From: Candidatus Marinacidobacterales bacterium
GTDB taxonomy: Bacteria > Acidobacteriota > Vicinamibacteria > Marinacidobacterales > SMYC01
DNA length: 64,000 nucleotides
Reading direction: 5' to 3'
Assembly (NCBI GenBank): GCA_965237955.1
Contig: OZ250169.1
Coordinates: 1,728,001-1,792,000 of the forward strand
Shown here: piece by piece, positions 51,558-62,663 of the stretch
How the letters are laid out: the number at the start of each line of letters is the position of its first letter
How positions within the stretch are numbered: position 1 is the stretch's first letter
Notes under the pieces: generated by a model
What the model saw: the letters and a program-made list of their open reading frames with translations, nothing else
Database searches by the model: none
What the model was told of the DNA's origin: nothing
Translations under genes and position numbers: made by a program

Positions 51558-51592
51558 TACTCGACCTCGATTAGGGAGAGATCGTAGAACCT

Positions 51593-54567: not shown

Positions 54568-55809
54568 ATGAAACACAAGGGCCGGCGAAAAGCCGAATTG
54601 AAGCTGTCGTCTCAAGAAAGCGAAGCGCTGACGCGACTGGCGCGACGCAGCCGTAGTTCGCCGCACCAAGCCTTCCGAGCGAAGATCGTGCTGGATTGCG
54701 CGGCGGGTCTGACGAATATGGAAGTTGCTAGCCCCCTGGATCTTTGATTACTATACAAAGTTAGGCTTTTCGCCAGCCCATAAGATTCATAAGATTCATG
54801 CACTTAGAATGGTTTCGGCAAGCTCTGCTTTATCTAGTTTGTTCTGATACAGGGGACTAGGAAGATGCACACCATGAGGAGCACGGTGGGCAAGTGGCGA
54901 AGACGCTTTGTAGAACAACGAATGGAAGGGTTGTACGACGAACCTCGGCCGGGAGCGGCTCGCAAAATCGGCGATGACCAGATCGAGGAAGTCCTGACCA
55001 AGACGCTGGAGACGACTCCAAAGGGGAGAACCCATTGGAGTACGCGCTCGATGGCCAAGCATCTTGGGCTGAGTCATTCGACGATTGGACGTATTTGGCG
55101 AACGTTCGGGCTTCAACCGCACCGCTCGGAATCGTTTCGTCTCTCGCAAGACCCACAACTGGTCGAAAAAGTACGCGACGTTGTTGGCCTGTATATGAAC
55201 CCACCGGATAACGCGGTCGTCCTGTGCGTCGACGAGAAATCGCAGATTCAAGCGCTCGAGCGTGCTCAACCTGTCCTGCCCATGAGCTTGGGCCAGCCCG
55301 AGCGACAAACCCACGACTACATTCGGCATGGAACGACTGACCTGTTTGCCGCACTCGACGCCGCAACAGGTGAAGTCTTCGGAAAGTGCTACGCGCGACA
55401 TCGAGCGCTAGAGTTCAAGAAGTTCCTCGCTGAGATCGAAGCAGCCGTTCCCAGCGAGTTGGACATCCACGTCGTGCTCGACAATCTCGCCACGCACAAG
55501 ACACCGGCGATCAAACGCTGGCTTTCCAAGCGACCTCGGTTCCACTTTCACTTCACACCGACACACGCCTCTTGGCTCAACTTCGCTGAGCGCTTCTTTG
55601 GCTTGCTCACCGAACACGCCTTGCGACGAGGCTCGCACACGAGCGTGCCTCAGCTCCGCGCTGCGATACAAGACTATCTCGATGCTCACAACGAGAACCC
55701 AAAGCCGTTCAAGTGGACGAAATCCGCCGACCAAATCCTCGAAACCATCGCTCGGTTCGCCCAGCGAACGCTCGATACACATGGCAAATCGAATTTGGAC
55801 AGTAATTAA
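54568..55809 (+). pseudogene. IS630 transposase split by MITE copy C
   Basis: MKHKGRRKAELKLS..RAKIVL..NMEVA|[37 protein letters not shown]; TGA inside the MITE. Confidence 0.92.
54728..54860 (-). mobile_element. 133-bp IS630-type MITE, copy C (inside the IS630 transposase)
   Basis: Reverse complement of copies A/B, flanked by CTAG. Confidence 0.93.
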
Positions 55810-55856: not shown

Positions 55857-57266
55857 GTGCGAAAGCCGACCCGACGTGAGTTTCTGCGTGCAGCGCTAGG
55901 GGCGAGTCTAGCGCTGCCGGCGGCGTCCGGCCTCGGCGGAGGACAAACCAACCAACGGACGGCCGCCCCGGACCTATGGGGGCTGGGGTTTCCCGATCCG
56001 GCGGTGGGATGGCGCGGAGACTCCTCGGTCGCTGCGGCTCTCCGGGCCGGGCAGAGCCTTCAGTCGTTCTCCGCACCCTTTCCGCAAGTCGAAGCGAAAC
56101 CTGCCACGTCCTTGAGGGAGCGCTTTGCCGATCTCGACCGGCACTTCATTTTCGACTACTACCCGTGGTACGGGGCCGACCCCTGGAGGCACTGGAACAA
56201 CCGGGACCGCTTTCCGCCCGATGACATTGCTGCTACCAGCGTCCCTCACCTGGGGCCCTATGATTCCAAGTCCACTGCGGTACTGGAACGGCACGCACGC
56301 TGGATTGCCGAGTCCGGTGTAGGTGCGATCGCACTCTCCTGGTGGGGGCGGGGAAGCTACGAGGATGCCGCGGTCCCCCTGGTCATGGATGTCATGAAGG
56401 CTCATGACATCAAAGTTACTTTTGGTCTCGAACCTTATGCCAACGATCGCGGAAGCCGATACGCCCAGGACATCCTTTACTTGCTTCGGGAGTTCGGTGA
56501 GAAACGCGGTTGGGATGCCTTCCTCGTATTGAAGAACGAAGACGGCGCGGAGCGGCCGGTATTCAAAGGATTCCGACTCATTCTCCCGCGGGCGATCGTC
56601 GACTGTCACGGCATCACACATCGGGTACCTGATTTCACGCCGGACGGGGTTTGGCGGCGTCAGACAGACCGCCTTCGGGAGACCCTCAGGCGAGACTTCG
56701 ATCACATCACGCTCCTCGCGGACTCGCTCGATTTCGTGAGGACCCCGGCGTCCGGCTTCGATGGTGTTGGCATCTACGACAATTTCATCGAGCCGGATCG
56801 TTACGCAGGGTTCGCTGCCGGTGCTTCGCGGCAAGACCTCCTCTTCTCTTTCAACACGAATCCCGGCTTCGATGGTATCGAGCCGGGACAGGTCGATCCC
56901 GATAGCTGCTATGAGCCGCTCCCGTTTGCGCCCCCGACTGAAGGCCTCGACTGGGATTTGCTGCATGAGCGGGATCGAGCAGCGCGGTTGTCGGCGGAGA
57001 GGATCAAAGAGTCACTACAAGCTACGATTCGCGTTCAGAGTTTTGCGACTCTCACGAACTCTCAGCGCGGCTTTTTTCTCGTCTACCTCAACTCGTTCAA
57101 CGAATGGCACGAAGGCCACGCCTTCGAGCCCATGAAGGACTGGACGGAGCTTCGCGCCGAAGAAAAGGCTCTTGGTTACCATAACCCCACCTGGGGCGAC
57201 TACAGGCTGGCCACTTTGAGCGCGGAGCTCCGCGACGTCGGAGCGCTCAGCTCGTCGGCACCTTGA
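55857..57266 (+). CDS. Tat-exported GH99-like glycoside hydrolase (endo-alpha-mannosidase/mannanase-like)
   Basis: TRREFL Tat motif; YYPWYG, LGPYDS, SWWG, LEPY, NSFNEWHEG. Confidence 0.8.
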   Translation: MRKPTRREFLRAALGASLALPAASGLGGGQTNQRTAAPDLWGLGFPDPAVGWRGDSSVAAALRAGQSLQSFSAPFPQVEAKPATSLRERFADLDRHFIFDYYPWYGADPWRHWNNRDRFPPDDIAATSVPHLGPYDSKSTAVLERHARWIAESGVGAIALSWWGRGSYEDAAVPLVMDVMKAHDIKVTFGLEPYANDRGSRYAQDILYLLREFGEKRGWDAFLVLKNEDGAERPVFKGFRLILPRAIVDCHGITHRVPDFTPDGVWRRQTDRLRETLRRDFDHITLLADSLDFVRTPASGFDGVGIYDNFIEPDRYAGFAAGASRQDLLFSFNTNPGFDGIEPGQVDPDSCYEPLPFAPPTEGLDWDLLHERDRAARLSAERIKESLQATIRVQSFATLTNSQRGFFLVYLNSFNEWHEGHAFEPMKDWTELRAEEKALGYHNPTWGDYRLATLSAELRDVGALSSSAP

Positions 57267-57319: not shown

Positions 57320-57427
57320 GAGGGTGTTGTCAAGTTGAGGGCTTCAAGGCCGATTCGACCCCAAGATATGGTCGACGGCGCATCCTCGTGCCCCCACGAT
57401 ATTGGGGCGCGATTCGGCAACTTGACA
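57320..57427. repeat. ~105-bp dispersed repeat, copy 2 (inverted relative to 15031-15138)
   Basis: TGTCAAGTTG...CAACTTGACA inverted ends; same internal motifs as copy 1. Confidence 0.8.
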
Positions 57428-57542
57428 GCAATGGCACCGCCCGTGTGGGCGGAGGTCATCGGGGAATGAACGAAATCCGTTCGTTCACTCGAAAGTACCT
57501 CGGCGGATCTACGAGTTATTCGAAGAGAACCTGAAGCCAAAA

Positions 57543-57663
57543 CGAAAAATGGGGGGCAGGCTGACTGCCTGCCCCCCAGATTTCTATCCCCGGGAGGCGG
57601 TGCGGGGGGCACCCCCCGGGGCTGGCGTCGAGATTGAGGAGCGACGCCAAATGCGTTCTCGGA
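57543..57663 (-). ncRNA. Candidate sigma54-dependent small RNA
   Basis: Consensus -24/-12 promoter upstream, stem-loop with CUCCUC loop, G/C hairpin, strong terminal hairpin plus U-tract; no credible ORF. Confidence 0.6.
57545..57578 (-). terminator. Intrinsic terminator
   Basis: Minus strand GGGGGGCAGGC-AGTCA-GCCTGCCCCCC followed by ATTTTTCGTTTT. Confidence 0.8.
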
Positions 57664-57673
57664 CACCCTTTCA

Positions 57674-57689
57674 AGCAATTGGCGTGCCA
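57674..57689 (-). promoter_or_regulatory. sigma54 (RpoN) promoter
   Basis: Minus strand TGGCACGCCAATTGCT matches TGGCACG-N4-TTGCW. Confidence 0.75.
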
Positions 57690-58017
57690 GTAACGGGTCT
57701 TCGGTGTAACTGTATATATAGCAATGGGTTATCGATGTATTGCCAAAGTCCGCCACGAGCTTCGGATTCAAATTTGAAACTGGACGTAAACTTATTACAT
57801 TTAAAAATTTAACACTTGGCGAGCTTGTGCGCGGGCTAGATCTACTTGAAGGCCCTTTATTGGGCAGGCTTGGGCGTGGCCGGGCAGTCAACGTTTAGTC
57901 GGCAAGGCCGATCGGGCACGGGCACGGGCGGTCGGGCACGACTGGAGGCTGAGCTGTCTGGTAGAATTGAGGTACACCACAACTACGTCACACGTCCTGA
58001 ACGCTGGGCGCTCCCCG

Positions 58018-59594
58018 ATGAACCAGCAGGTCGCAGAAGCTTTCAAGAAGCTCTACTTCGGCAAGCGCACCGGTGTGCTTACGTGTGAGGCGGACGCGGC
58101 GCGCCGCGCGGTCTACTTTCAGTCCGGGTTCGTCGTGAGCGCTTCCTCGAGCCTGGAGCAGGATCGGCTTGGCGAAGTCATGATCCGCCACGGTCGCATC
58201 ACTCAACAGCAGTTCGAAGATGCATCGCACTTCATCAAGAGCGGTTGGAAGCTGGGCGAGATCCTGGCCGAGCTGAGCGTTATCGATGAGGAAGAGATCG
58301 AGTCTTTCGTGCGGCTCCAGCTTCTCGACATCGCGTGCACGCAACTCATTCGCCCGCCCAAGCGGCTGTCGTTTGCGGCTCTTAGCGGAGTCGACGCCTA
58401 CCTCGAGGCGCCGCTTTCGGTCGCCGACATTCTCATGGAGGCGGCGCGCCGCACTCCCAAGCTCGGGTCGAAGCTCAGAGCGCTCAAGGGGGGAAAACGC
58501 AAGCTCGGGTTCCCGAGCGACCCCCTCAAACGTTTCCAGGACGTCAACCTGCAACCCGAAGAAGCGTTCGTACTGTCACGAGTGGACGGAACGCAGACCC
58601 CGAGGGACATTTTCGCGGTGAGCCCGCTGTCCGAGGAGCAGACCGCTCGTACTTTGCTGGGCCTGCTCGAAGCTCAGCTCATCGAGCCCGAAGGCACCGA
58701 TGTCGTCGAGCCCAAAGTGACCGAAGTCGAGGCAGCCGAACCAGAAGATGACGTCGACACCAGCCAAACGCTGAGGCGGGGCGAGCAGCGTGACCGCGAG
58801 CGTGCGTCCGTCGAGCGGCTCTACCAGGAAGTCCAATTCCAAGATCATTGGCAGGTCCTTTCGATCGATCGGGGAGCGTCTTCGGAGATGATCAAGGAAG
58901 CTTTTTTTAGCGGTGCGAAGGCCTACCATCCCGACATGTTTCGCCATATTACGGAGCCCGAGTTCCAAGAGAAGCTGTCGTTCATCTTTCAACGGATCAA
59001 CGAGGCGTACGAAACGCTTTCTTCGAACGATCCATGGAGCGTTACGAGTCGCTTCGAGCGAAAGAAGAGCTCTACGCCCAATCCCAGCAGGGTCCCCCGT
59101 CGCCCGCATCGAGGGCAGCGTCGCGAGGGAAACCAAGCGATGTCGCCAGCCTGTTCCACCGCGCACATCTGGCGTTCGATAGCGAGGACTTCTGGAGGTG
59201 CATCGAGCTCTCGCGCGAAGCCGTCGACCTCGCACCCGATTGCGCCGCCTACTACAACCTACTCGGCCTGGCTCTAGCCAAGAACCCGAAGTGGCGTCAG
59301 GACGCCGAGAAAAATCTGAAGATCGCGGCGAACCTGGATCCCTTCAAAGCGTCCTACGTCTTAGAGCTAGTCCCCTGTATCAGAACAAACTAGATAAAGC
59401 ATAGCTTGCCGAAACCATTCTAAGTGCATGAATCTTATGAATCTTATGGGCTGGCGAAAAGCCTAACTTTGTATAGTAATCAAAGATCCAGGGGACTAGC
59501 GAAACTCTACGAGAGAGCTGGCCTGCACCTGAGAGCCCAAAAAACGCTCGAGAAGGCCCAAGCGATCGATCCGACGGTAGAAGGGCCGGAGTAG
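58018..59594 (+). pseudogene. DUF4388-like + DnaJ-like (HPD) + TPR protein; frameshift near 59030 and MITE insertion at 59367
   Basis: RTGVL..RAVYF..G.VV.ASS..DRLGEV; KAYHPD..FQRINEAYETLS; YYNLLGLAL; C-terminal AKLYERAG resumes after the MITE. Confidence 0.8.
59367..59499 (+). mobile_element. 133-bp IS630-type MITE, copy D
   Basis: CTAG-flanked, near-identical to copy A. Confidence 0.93.
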
Positions 59595-59607: not shown

Positions 59608-61020
59608 CTAGCCTTCTTTCTCATACTGCTTTAGCTTCCGCCAAAGCGTCGCCGTCGTAATACCGAGTCGTCGCGCGGTGTTCTTGCGGCTGCCACTACA
59701 CTCCGCGAGCACTTCGAGGATGTACTCCTTTTCGAGCTCGGACAGCGTGAGCGAGCTCTGTCGGGCGTGGTCGATGACCCGATCTTCGTTGCGATCGGAC
59801 TCGCCAAAAGGTAGGTCGTCCATCCCGAGGATGCCGTCTCGATCGAGAGCCGCGGCCCGTTCGATAATGTTCTCGAGCTCGCGCACGTTGCCCCGCCACG
59901 TCTGCTTCAACAGAAGGTCCATGGCTTGCGGTGAGATCGCGGGCGGCTGCGCTTTGCCCATCCGCTCGGCGATGCGCCGCACGAAGTGTTGCGCGAGAGG
60001 CGGAATATCGTCGCGTCGTGCGCGTAGCGGAGGGAGCTCGATGGGAATGACGTTGAGGCGATAGAAGAGATCCTCGCGGAAGTCGCGGTCCGCGACGCTT
60101 TTCTCTAGGTCGCGATTCGTCGCGGCGATGATGCGAACGTCGAGGTTGCGACTCGCGGTCGTTCCCACGCGGCGGACTTCGCCGTTTTGCAGGAAGCGCA
60201 ACATCTTGACTTGCGCCATCTGAGTCAGCTCGCCCACCTCGTCGAGAAACGCGGTGCCGCCGTGGGCTTCGTCGAAGAGCCCGCGTTTGTCGGCGTAGGC
60301 TCCGGTGAACGCGCCTTTCGTGTGGCCGAAAAGTTCACTTTCCTGCAGGTTCTCCGGAATCGCACCGCAGTTCACGATAACGAGGGGCTTGTCTTTCCTC
60401 GGTGAGAGCTGGTGGAGCGCTCGCGCGACGAGCTCCTTTCCGGTGCCGCTTTCTCCGGTGATGAGCACGGTGGATTCGAGTCGAGCCACCTGGTCGACCA
60501 TCTTCAATACGTCGTTCATCGCCTGTGACGTGCACACGATTTCCTCGAATGGGTGTTGACCGCGAACGGCTTGCTCGAGCAGTCGAACGCGTTGCGTCAA
60601 TCCCTTGCGTTCGAGCGCGCGCCCCGCGACGAGGGTAAGCTCCTCTGGCTGGAACGGCTTGGTGAGGTAGTCGTAGGCGCCGGACTTGATAGCTTCGACG
60701 GCTCCTTCGATCGTCCCGTAGGCCGTCATCACCACGACTTCGGTGTCGGGAAAGAGCTCCTTGCTGCGGGTGAGCACGTCCATGCCGCTCATACCGGTGA
60801 GGCGCATATCGGTGATGACGAGGTCGAAGGGCTTCTTGTACAGGTACTCGAGCGCCTGCTCGCCGCTTTCCGCAGACTCCACCGTGTAGCCTTCACGGCG
60901 GAACGTGATGACCATCGACTCGCGGATGGGCGCCTGGTCGTCGACGACGAGGACAGACACACTTTGGACCGATTCCTCGGACGTGTCCTCAGCGACGGAT
61001 CTCGATCGGTTGGTGCTCAT
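59608..61020 (-). CDS. sigma54-dependent response regulator (NtrC/AtoC family)
   Basis: REC domain; GESGTGKE; GAFTGA; WRGNVREL; Fis-type HTH. Confidence 0.95.
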   Translation of the reverse strand: MSTNRSRSVAEDTSEESVQSVSVLVVDDQAPIRESMVITFRREGYTVESAESGEQALEYLYKKPFDLVITDMRLTGMSGMDVLTRSKELFPDTEVVVMTAYGTIEGAVEAIKSGAYDYLTKPFQPEELTLVAGRALERKGLTQRVRLLEQAVRGQHPFEEIVCTSQAMNDVLKMVDQVARLESTVLITGESGTGKELVARALHQLSPRKDKPLVIVNCGAIPENLQESELFGHTKGAFTGAYADKRGLFDEAHGGTAFLDEVGELTQMAQVKMLRFLQNGEVRRVGTTASRNLDVRIIAATNRDLEKSVADRDFREDLFYRLNVIPIELPPLRARRDDIPPLAQHFVRRIAERMGKAQPPAISPQAMDLLLKQTWRGNVRELENIIERAAALDRDGILGMDDLPFGESDRNEDRVIDHARQSSLTLSELEKEYILEVLAECSGSRKNTARRLGITTATLWRKLKQYEKEG

Positions 61021-62244
61021 CGGAACTCGATTCTGAACTCATGGGAAATCTCAATCGGAACGCGCTTCCTCGTCCCTCTTCGCTTTCTACTTCGACCTCG
61101 CCGGCATGTGCTTCGACGACGCGGTGCACGATCGCGAGGCCCAGCCCGGTGCCATCGGCCTTCGTCGTGTGGAAAGGCTGAAAAATTTTGTCTCGCTCGC
61201 TCGCGAGAATACCTTTGCCGGTATCAGCGACGACGATTTCGAGAAAATCGCCACCCTTCGTCGAGCGACTCACTTCCACCCGAATCTCGCCGCCCTTGGG
61301 CATGGCTTCGACCGCGTTCACGAGTAGGTTCCAAAGCGCTTCGCGGGTCTGCGCCGAGTCGAGCGGGACTTTCGGCAAACCGGGCTCGTACTCTTTTTCG
61401 ATTCGGATCTCGCTTTTGCCCGTTTGTTCTTGGGACAGCAGAAGGAGCAGGTCGTCGAGGACGTCGGTCACGTGCTCCGGCATCTTGTGAATGGGCCGCG
61501 GTCGTGCGAACCGGAGAAAATCGGCGACGATATCTTCGAGGCGTTGCGATTCATCGTTGACGACTTCGAGGCGGCGGCGATCGTCGCCGTGTAGATCTAA
61601 ATCGCGCCGGAGAACGCCCACCGAGTTCGAGATTGCGCCTAGTGGGTTTCGAATCTCGTGCGCGATCTGCGCTGCCAACTCACCGATCGCAGCGAGCCGC
61701 TCCGAACGGATCAGTTTCTCCTGCGTCTCCTTCAGCTCCTCGTACGCGCGCCGAGTCTCCTGGAAGAGCTCGCGATAGCGTTTTTCGGATTCCCGCAGTC
61801 GCGCCGTCCGCTCACGCACTTTCCTTTCGAGTGAGCGCTGGTAGTCTTCGTTTTCGGCCTCGAGTCGACCTTTTTCACGTAGAAGCGCGTTCCGCTCGCC
61901 CGCTCGACGACGGCAAGGAGCACCGGACGAGTGACGGGCTTGGTGATGTAGTCGTAAGCGCCTTCTTTGAGAGCCTCGACCGCGGTGGATAAGTCTGGAT
62001 GGCCGGTGACCATGACCACGCTCATGGTCTCGTCGTGTTCGGCTGCAAAACGAAGCAGCGATAATCCGCTCTCTTGCGGGAGCATGAGGTCGGTAAGCGC
62101 GACGTCGAATCGCTTCTCCGCGAGATGTGTCTTGGCCTCGTTGAAGCTCGACGCGGCAACGACCTCATGGCCCTCCAGTTCGAGGACGTCCTGAAAGGTT
62201 GCTCGGACGGTCTCTTCGTCGTCGACGATCAGTATCGATGGCAC
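60989..62244 (-). CDS. Receiver-fused histidine kinase, frameshift near 61890
   Basis: N-terminal REC (ILIVDD..TDL..KP); IAHEIRNPL, NLLVNA, DTGKGI, GTGLGL. Confidence 0.88.
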
Positions 62245-62324: not shown

Positions 62325-62663
62325 GTGGCCTGGATCCGTCCGATTTCGGAAGACGAGGCAACCGGGGATCTCCGTCAGGTTTCCGAAGATGACCAGCTCG
62401 TCGAGCGAGTCAAAAAGGATCCGACCACCGCCGAGCTGACGCCGCGTCAGCGCGCTATCGTCGACTTTGCGATCAAGCTCACCGTAGCGCCAAAGGACGC
62501 ACGCCGTGAGGATTTGGATCCACTGAGAGCGCACGGCCTGGCCGACGATGACATCTTCATGCTCGTCCACGTCATCGGCTACTTCAACCACATCAACCGC
62601 GTGGCCGACGGACTAGGTATCGACTTGGAACCGGGTATGGGACCCTCTCCGTATCTGGAATGA
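62325..62663 (+). pseudogene. Peroxidase-related / CMD (AhpD-like) protein with probable internal deletion
   Basis: MAWIRPISEDEATGDL joined directly to the C-terminal half (FAIKLT..YFNHINRVADGLG); central Cys motif absent. Confidence 0.65.

Follow-up and report, generated by a model that had tools for sequence, protein, structure and literature searches.

The standard layout of a sigma54-dependent promoter with its enhancer consists of a -24/-12 element, activator sites upstream of it and often an IHF site. In Vibrio, the Qrr/LuxO system runs from a phosphorelay through a sigma54 activator to Hfq-associated sRNAs, one copy of which adjoins the activator gene. Decoy RNAs of the CsrB/RsmY type carry repeated GGA loops, and their usual partner is CsrA. 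For the Acidobacteriota, which are abundant in soils and sediments, we found no description in the open-access literature of an RNA like the one analyzed here.

Three reports on Myxococcus xanthus describe a kinase and an NtrC-like regulator (PxrK/PxrR) upstream of the sigma54 promoter of Pxr (PMC5684412, PMC10217877, PMC11928866), and two of these describe an sRNA of three hairpins, with the first two conserved and the third variable (PMC5684412, PMC10217877). A C-run in the 5′ part of Pxr is shown by published primers (PMC5568312), and a preprint reports that Pxr contacts mRNAs near the SD (bioRxiv 10.1101/2025.09.11.675593). The C-rich loops of the 6C RNA of Actinobacteria (RF01066) pair with the G-rich ribosome-binding regions of many mRNAs (PMC6486639), and in the Cuckoo RNAs of Alphaproteobacteria every loop carries CCUCCUCCC, on stems that are variable (PMC4615179).

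Comparison of the locus with described sRNA systems

The window, i.e., the whole stretch of 64,000 nucleotides that we analyzed, contains on its minus strand a predicted RNA gene (Table 1). As with Pxr, genes for a kinase and an NtrC-like regulator lie upstream of a sigma54 promoter, although here one gene on the opposite strand (DUF4388/J-domain) intervenes. The third hairpin, which is required in Pxr, is absent here in over half of the alleles, and Hfq, which M. xanthus lacks, is encoded here, the phyla also being different. Searched with the Pxr model (RF01812), the genome gave no hit at E ≤ 1, with 150 of 1,104 candidates scored, and positions 57400–57900 gave none at E ≤ 10. The likeness to Qrr lies in the order of phosphorelay, sigma54 activator and sRNA, which we infer here from sequence; the Qrr model had no match here at its gathering score or at E ≤ 10, and in contrast to Qrr there is a single RNA copy per genome in 17 of the 18 positive family genomes, this one included, the two matches in G007 being identical contig ends.

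With 6C the RNA shares adjacent hairpins, C-rich loops and high sequence conservation (PMC6486639), and the two conserved, single-stranded C-rich loops of 6C have counterparts here, with loop 2 only partly open. The differences are that a run of six C occurs here in hairpin 2 only, and that the RNA here is predicted to be under sigma54 enhancer control; the 6C model had no match at E ≤ 1 in the genome, a search of limited sensitivity, since even in Corynebacterium the control fell short of the cut-off. The Cuckoo, ar14 and CcsR RNAs of Alphaproteobacteria also have C-rich loops on hairpins in series. Rfam scores for this group were weak and sub-threshold (22.7 bits for ar14, where the cut-off is 58.8, and 19.6 for CcsR1, where it is 65.3), and unlike in Cuckoo no loop here carries CCUCCUCCC and the stems are invariant. 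The repeated GGA loops and the CsrA of the CsrB/RsmY-type decoys are both missing, with GGA loops absent from the family alignment and CsrA found in none of the five genomes tested.

Against Rfam as a whole, there was no match at the gathering score, and by E-value there were only sub-threshold hairpin look-alikes, so the novelty proposed in the initial annotation has held. On these comparisons, the predicted RNA is a new family of a kind already known from Vibrio and the myxobacteria. Our joint reading is that of a conserved, non-coding sigma54 RNA that would be switched on by the neighboring kinase and activator, and that would act as a repressor through C-rich loops; since the steps are not independent, we give all of them together about an even chance. 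If it is true, the design of a two-component system, sigma54 and a single sRNA recurs in a further phylum beside those of Vibrio and the myxobacteria. Because the locus provides a named candidate activator alongside the RNA, its promoter and the predicted enhancer sites, activation can be tested in E. coli without culturing the host.

Table 1. Features predicted at the RNA locus and in its neighboring genes (window coordinates).
Feature	Position	Strand	Remarks
Predicted small RNA	57545..57663	-	start inferred from the -12 position; ~119 nt here
Single-stranded 5′ leader motif GAGAACGC	57653..57660	-	most alignment columns ≥90% conserved
Hairpin 1	57623..57649	-	8-bp stem, open 11-nt C-rich loop; loop predicted unpaired
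Hairpin 2	57588..57621	-	G/C-rich stem, C-rich loop; deepest-conserved part of the element
Hairpin 3 and U-tract	57545..57578	-	intrinsic-terminator-like; 11 G-C pairs, 12 pairs with the closing U-A
Sigma54 -24/-12 promoter element TGGCACGCCAATTGCT	57674..57689	-	sequence pattern match
IHF-like site between enhancer and promoter	57719..57731	-	mismatch score against the IHF consensus
Proximal enhancer-like palindrome TTCAAATTTGAA	57767..57779	-	predicted activator site 2; alignment of upstream DNA
Distal enhancer-like palindrome	57800..57812	-	predicted activator site 1; alignment of upstream DNA
DUF4388 + DnaJ-domain gene	57967..59277	+	divergent from the RNA, between RNA and activator; conserved neighbor
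NtrC-type sigma54 activator (REC, AAA+, HTH_8)	59608..61020	-	phospho-Asp and GAFTGA both intact; proposed to activate the RNA gene
Soluble hybrid kinase (REC, HisKA, HATPase_c)	60989..62244	-	no sensor or membrane segment

A sigma54 promoter with enhancer-like sites upstream

The exact RpoN -24/-12 element that had been annotated on the minus strand at 57689–57674 is present there. The strict promoter pattern occurs once in the window, where 0.05 occurrences would be expected, and 5 of 100 shuffled sequences also contain it; the whole 8.1-Mb genome, in which rpoN is encoded, has 16 strict matches. Taken alone, the pattern is modest, only mildly unusual evidence. In all 33 distinct alleles that we collected, the -24/-12 motif occurs in the same place, while the spacer varies.

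Aligning the DNA upstream of the alleles revealed two palindromes that are absent from the initial annotation. Scored with a motif derived from these same alleles, the proximal palindrome has two mismatches or fewer in 32 of 32 alleles, 85–98 bp upstream of the promoter, and the distal palindrome, a further 32–35 bp upstream of the proximal one, has two mismatches or fewer to the family motif in 31 of the 32 alleles with enough upstream DNA. The tandem pair is present at only two loci in the 8.1-Mb genome, of which only the RNA locus precedes a sigma54 motif, and another perfect palindrome, elsewhere in the genome, is not followed by a sigma54 motif. Between the palindromes and the promoter, an IHF-like site lies at -40 to -42 in 28 of 32 alleles, with a mean of 2.25 mismatches against 3.60 ± 0.13 in shuffled sequences (0 of 500), a score that uses the IHF consensus and a search range that was reset after a first one, which cut off the site, had been negative (4.16 against 3.85).

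At the level of sequence, the RNA gene carries the general elements of sigma54-dependent control, i.e., the -24/-12 motif, upstream sites, an IHF-like site and RpoN in the genome. We regard it as very probable that the element is transcribed by sigma54 polymerase as an RNA of 80–120 nt.

Distribution and conservation of the element

DNA searches identified the promoter and the two-hairpin core in 17 of 18 genomes of the family (Acidobacteriota, Vicinamibacteria), with the sole miss being G003, an assembly that is 84% complete, and returned just four matches of 23–29 nt in the two other families of the order. A covariance model, searched over 55 genomes of the order, gave strong matches that were confined to the family and eight weak matches, and of the three weak matches that we inspected one (G031) is real. 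Searching 400 genomes of the phylum at the DNA level gave four short matches, with E-values of 3e-4 to 5e-4. When species genomes were scanned with a pattern, 19 loci were found, 17 of which are true homologues (Acidobacteriota, Vicinamibacteria or Candidatus Marinacidobacterales), and 120 matches to the loop pattern in metagenomes included 19 true homologues, which, together with the genome loci, make up the 33 distinct alleles. The promoter is present in all 19 metagenome matches that have hairpin 2, and in none of the other 101.

Over 14 loci, the 62-nt core has a mean identity of ~95% to the window copy, as against 42% at the four-fold degenerate sites of the activator gene. Nine substitutions are seen in the core, all of them transitions, and two alleles carry 1-nt insertions. 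Conservation in relatives puts the predicted element far beyond chance, and the loss of promoter and loop in relatives, which would have refuted the initial annotation, is contradicted by the retention of the promoter and the two-hairpin core in 17 of 18 family genomes and by a promoter in 33 of 33 alleles.

The one real weak match, G031, belongs to a sister family. Its RNA gene, located among unrelated genes, is preceded by a variant -24/-12 element, an IHF-like site and the two palindromes. The 10-bp stem of its hairpin 2 is identical to the family consensus and its hairpin 1 loop is missing, in what is a single diverged copy from a bin that is 73% complete. Used as a query, this copy identified no further relatives, and it had no match in Rfam. 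The pattern of the hairpin 2 stem, searched in 250 genomes of the class and in viral contigs, was found in 91 distinct contexts, with the palindrome in G031 only; ten of the contexts from viral contigs have a loose promoter-like match.

Predicted length and fold of the RNA

In relatives where the RNA ends after hairpin 2, its predicted length is ~80–85 nt. Since hairpin 3, which is variable in sequence, is present in 14 of the 33 alleles, and a U-tract directly follows hairpin 2 in 17 (two are unclear), the family unit would be a leader with two hairpins, of ~80–85 nt. All of the structures proposed in the initial annotation on the minus strand, i.e., hairpin 1 at 57649–57623, a G/C hairpin and an 11-bp terminator stem with a U-tract, are located where it had placed them; the terminator stem stands for this strain, and not for the majority of alleles. 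The hairpin 1 loop, which is CUCCUCAAUCU in this strain, has the family consensus CUCCCCAAUCU and reads so in 30 of 33 alleles, which leaves the proposed CUCCUC anti-SD loop as a private variant of one allele. The second GCCUCC, too, is probably not exposed, since most of it belongs to the 3′ side of hairpin 2, where base pairing is predicted. In the predicted ensemble, loop 1 is fully open, and the loop of hairpin 2 only partly so.

For the 131-nt stretch, the predicted folding energy is -74.2 kcal/mol (z -5.46), with none of 200 shuffled sequences as stable, and the core without the terminator has a z of -2.29 (5 of 200). Across the alleles, 692 of the 693 cells of the consensus fold are paired. 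Sixteen of the 21 pairs never vary; the stems have four substitutions, three of which leave a G-U pair in place and one of which is pair-breaking. The covariation check recommended earlier, which we ran on the alignment of the 33 alleles, found none of the 21 pairs changed on both sides and so lent no support, and the fold therefore rests on energy and on wobble changes.

Data from RNA-labelled runs include two contigs over the core, both of which extend past the terminator and may be DNA. Runs X1–X3 cover the stretch mainly via the repeat at 57418–57499. In X4, one contig of 151 nt ends at 57664, near the predicted start; because it overshoots the terminator by 30 nt, and because DNA may have been sequenced in this run, we do not count it as evidence of transcription. 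The repeat itself is an 80-bp sequence with ~30 copies in the genome, located just downstream of the RNA.

Proposed mode of action and candidate targets

The C-rich loops, together with the presence of hfq and the lack of CsrA in all five genomes tested, appear to fit the mode of action of 6C and that reported for Pxr. On this analogy, the balance tips somewhat towards an RNA that acts in trans on several mRNAs through short C-to-G seeds, with Hfq as a possible partner. The two loops are rich in C, and each of their four substitutions is a C/U change that a G partner tolerates, although such changes would be expected anyway given that all nine substitutions are transitions.

Our target search, which took perfect matches of 10–11 nt near an ATG with gene starts from a crude, home-made gene caller and scanned this genome as the only one in full, found its best complementary site in this genome at the SD of an amidohydrolase gene (11 of 11 pairs), a site that is absent from all 15 homologous loci checked (one of them cut by a contig end, and one further, partial locus excluded). 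Among 90 seed-match loci (drawn from 130 seed matches, of which the others were mostly self-matches or belonged to a repeat), orthologous gene pairs were shared only within a genus; the proposal that the RNA pairs with ribosome-binding sites has thus found no target conserved across genera. We made no use of the 130 matches as against 8 for a reversed control, because the order of SD and ATG is lost in that control, and because self-matches and the repeat are part of the count. The seed prefix was not enriched before SD cores (2 of 1,349 sites).

Two further matches to loop 1 are recorded here as observations. The clpB leader (51575–51590) is partially complementary to loop 1, with a 10-nt match in G017 (L326) and weaker ones in other relatives, and a multicopy repeat in G008, G012, G015 and G018 (e.g., L341–L344) has a 10-nt match to the loop 1 complement that is probably coincidental. 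A second, weak Hfq-family match (G000:C1:7684566-7684715) is also present, and each of the five genomes tested has one.

The same promoter and activator could also serve an RNA that works mainly via hairpin 2, as a protein site, a decoy or a processing signal, with loop 1 an accessory of one family. The 10-bp stem that is letter-identical in G031, where the hairpin 1 loop was lost, would be explained in this way, as would the 16 invariant pairs among 21 and the lack of a conserved mRNA target; stems here are as invariant as loops, which simple seed pairing does not require. We nevertheless consider such a role unlikely. The hairpin 1 loop is near-invariant across all 33 family alleles, G031 is one copy in an incomplete bin and could be decaying, and sequence conservation is likewise a feature of Pxr and 6C, which pair with mRNAs; a decoy role is opposed by the lack of CsrA and of GGA loops.

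Evidence for a probable link between the activator and the RNA

Proximity of the activator to the RNA proves little, because the genome contains ~21 other strong matches to sigma54 activators and because the Rrf2-HAD-activator-DUF4388-clpB-dnaK block keeps its synteny in genomes that lack the RNA as well. Kinase and RNA occur together in 18 of the 55 genomes searched in the order and are both missing from 36; one genome has the RNA only and none the kinase only. These counts are to be read with the reservation that kin are not independent, that independent events are few and that assemblies are incomplete (G031, 73%; G003, 84%). Three cases carry the weight because of this dependence among kin. 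In the sister family, kinase and intact activator are found together in G031 only, which is also the only genome there with a gene made up of enhancer, promoter and hairpin 2, this RNA gene being on a different contig from the kinase and activator. Five other sister-family activators occupy the syntenic place without kinase and without RNA, and in an alignment of these five, four have lost the phospho-Asp and three the GAFTGA, with each having lost at least one. Finally, G005 has lost the kinase and the activator from an otherwise contiguous locus and kept the RNA and promoter, and it carries the sole pair-breaking change among the 33 alleles. The comparative set is a record of module decay, in that kinase, phospho-site, GAFTGA loop and RNA are lost together and the DNA-binding helix stays.

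The recognition helix is invariant in all 99 aligned activator sequences, degenerate ones included, which were collected by similarity to the helix region itself. It is also kept at degenerate loci without the enhancer pair, and helix and palindrome are therefore not strictly tied. Activator orthologues were found only within this order among the genomes searched, and those of the C-terminal part in none of 400 other genomes of the phylum.

A different enhancer-binding protein could act on the sigma54 sRNA, with the neighboring pair linked to it by general conservation of gene order only. The many further activators in the genome, the synteny of the gene block without the RNA, the retention of RNA and promoter without the pair in G005 and the persistence of the helix without the enhancer pair all speak for such a protein. 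It remains improbable in our judgment, as none of the 55 genomes has the kinase without the RNA, G031 has both even though they are unlinked, and sister-family activators decay in the features of sigma54 activation where the RNA is missing.

The cascade from kinase to activator to sRNA put forward in the initial annotation is accordingly favored, as a prediction, by co-occurrence and co-decay, with the exception that the kinase is frameshifted in this strain; to the synteny with the two-component pair that it named as a check, G005, which is without the pair, and G031, where the pair is unlinked, are exceptions. In the proposed relay, another, unlinked kinase would pass the signal to the soluble hybrid kinase, a step that we suggest because this kinase has a receiver domain and no sensor. 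The hybrid kinase would phosphorylate the NtrC-type activator (59608–61020), which would bind the two palindromes upstream of the promoter; sigma54 polymerase would then make the 80–120-nt RNA from the -24/-12 promoter, and the C-rich loops would pair with G-rich ribosome-binding regions and repress the mRNAs. That the phosphorylated activator binds these palindromes, with the RNA probably its only sigma54 target in the genome, is in our view probable. The split of the kinase gene may impair the relay in this strain.

A far broader reading, which we offer as improbable, is that Acidobacteriota independently evolved a phosphorelay with one sRNA as its only sigma54 output, a global lifestyle switch parallel to LuxO/Qrr and PxrR/Pxr, whose oldest part would be hairpin 2, bound by a protein new as an sRNA binder, and whose RNA-less activators would have been repurposed several times as sigma54-independent regulators.

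Several activator lineages have lost GAFTGA, phospho-Asp or Walker A parts and kept the invariant HTH helix (L206–L210 and, e.g., P0051–P0053, P0058, P0059, P0062, P0066–P0068, P0075, P0079 and P0082); these degenerate activators are candidate sigma54-independent regulators. In G025 and G033, a single palindrome with two mismatches lies ~120 bp upstream of the activator gene itself.

Cis-acting and coding readings of the hairpins

The hairpins might also be cis elements, i.e., a converging clpB terminator or a structured dnaK leader, with no free RNA being made. The arrangement would allow this at some loci: clpB ends within ~160 nt on the opposite strand in 6 of the 17 genome loci, and dnaK is directly next on the same strand in 3 of 17. 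Against this stand a full promoter-enhancer architecture that points into the hairpins, a U-tract or terminator at their end, read on the strand of the promoter, in 31 of 33 alleles, a downstream gene that varies between genomes, with the G031 element in an unrelated neighborhood, and the fact that terminators are not conserved letter for letter (compare hairpin 3), which together make a purely cis-acting role highly improbable.

A short peptide starting at a UUG just before hairpin 1, where a TTG with GAGA ahead of it is present at the 5′ end, is scarcely credible, as the nine substitutions have no excess of silent changes in any of the six frames (at best five silent and four replacement), two alleles carry 1-nt insertions and the 3′ end has no conserved stop, and we rejected it, in agreement with the lack of a credible ORF noted in the initial annotation.

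Neighboring genes in this strain and in relatives

The kinase is one gene in relatives and is split in this strain by a 4-bp deletion near 61892. Contigs from three of four other runs carry the four bases, and a contig of X5 covers the place without them, which suggests that the deletion is a real strain allele, with an assembly error as the less likely explanation.

The DUF4388/DnaJ gene is also present in sister-family genomes without the RNA. In this strain it has a 1-bp deletion near 59030 relative to three of four runs, and its C-terminal part is lost. Together with the split kinase and a shortened AhpD-like gene, this gives the impression that several genes of the locus are decayed in this strain. 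Relatives of the AhpD/CMD-like gene (62325–62663) have an in-frame TGA in a C-x-x-stop motif at all six loci checked (L034, L038, L039, L040, L043 and L044), with the frame continuing past the TGA in five of the six, which suggests that they may encode a selenoprotein; the window copy is without this internal part.

Between the J-domain gene and the activator lies a multicopy miniature insertion element of 129 bp (59367–59495), which contigs of four out of four runs skip. An IS630-type transposase gene (54865–55809) and a GH99-like gene (55857–57266) separate the RNA from clpB in this strain, whereas clpB adjoins the RNA in 6 of 17 relatives. In the sister-family loci L206–L210, the place that the RNA occupies in the family, downstream of the DUF4388 gene, is taken by a short conserved ORF, which in G025 is followed by a gene for a GAF-GGDEF diguanylate cyclase.
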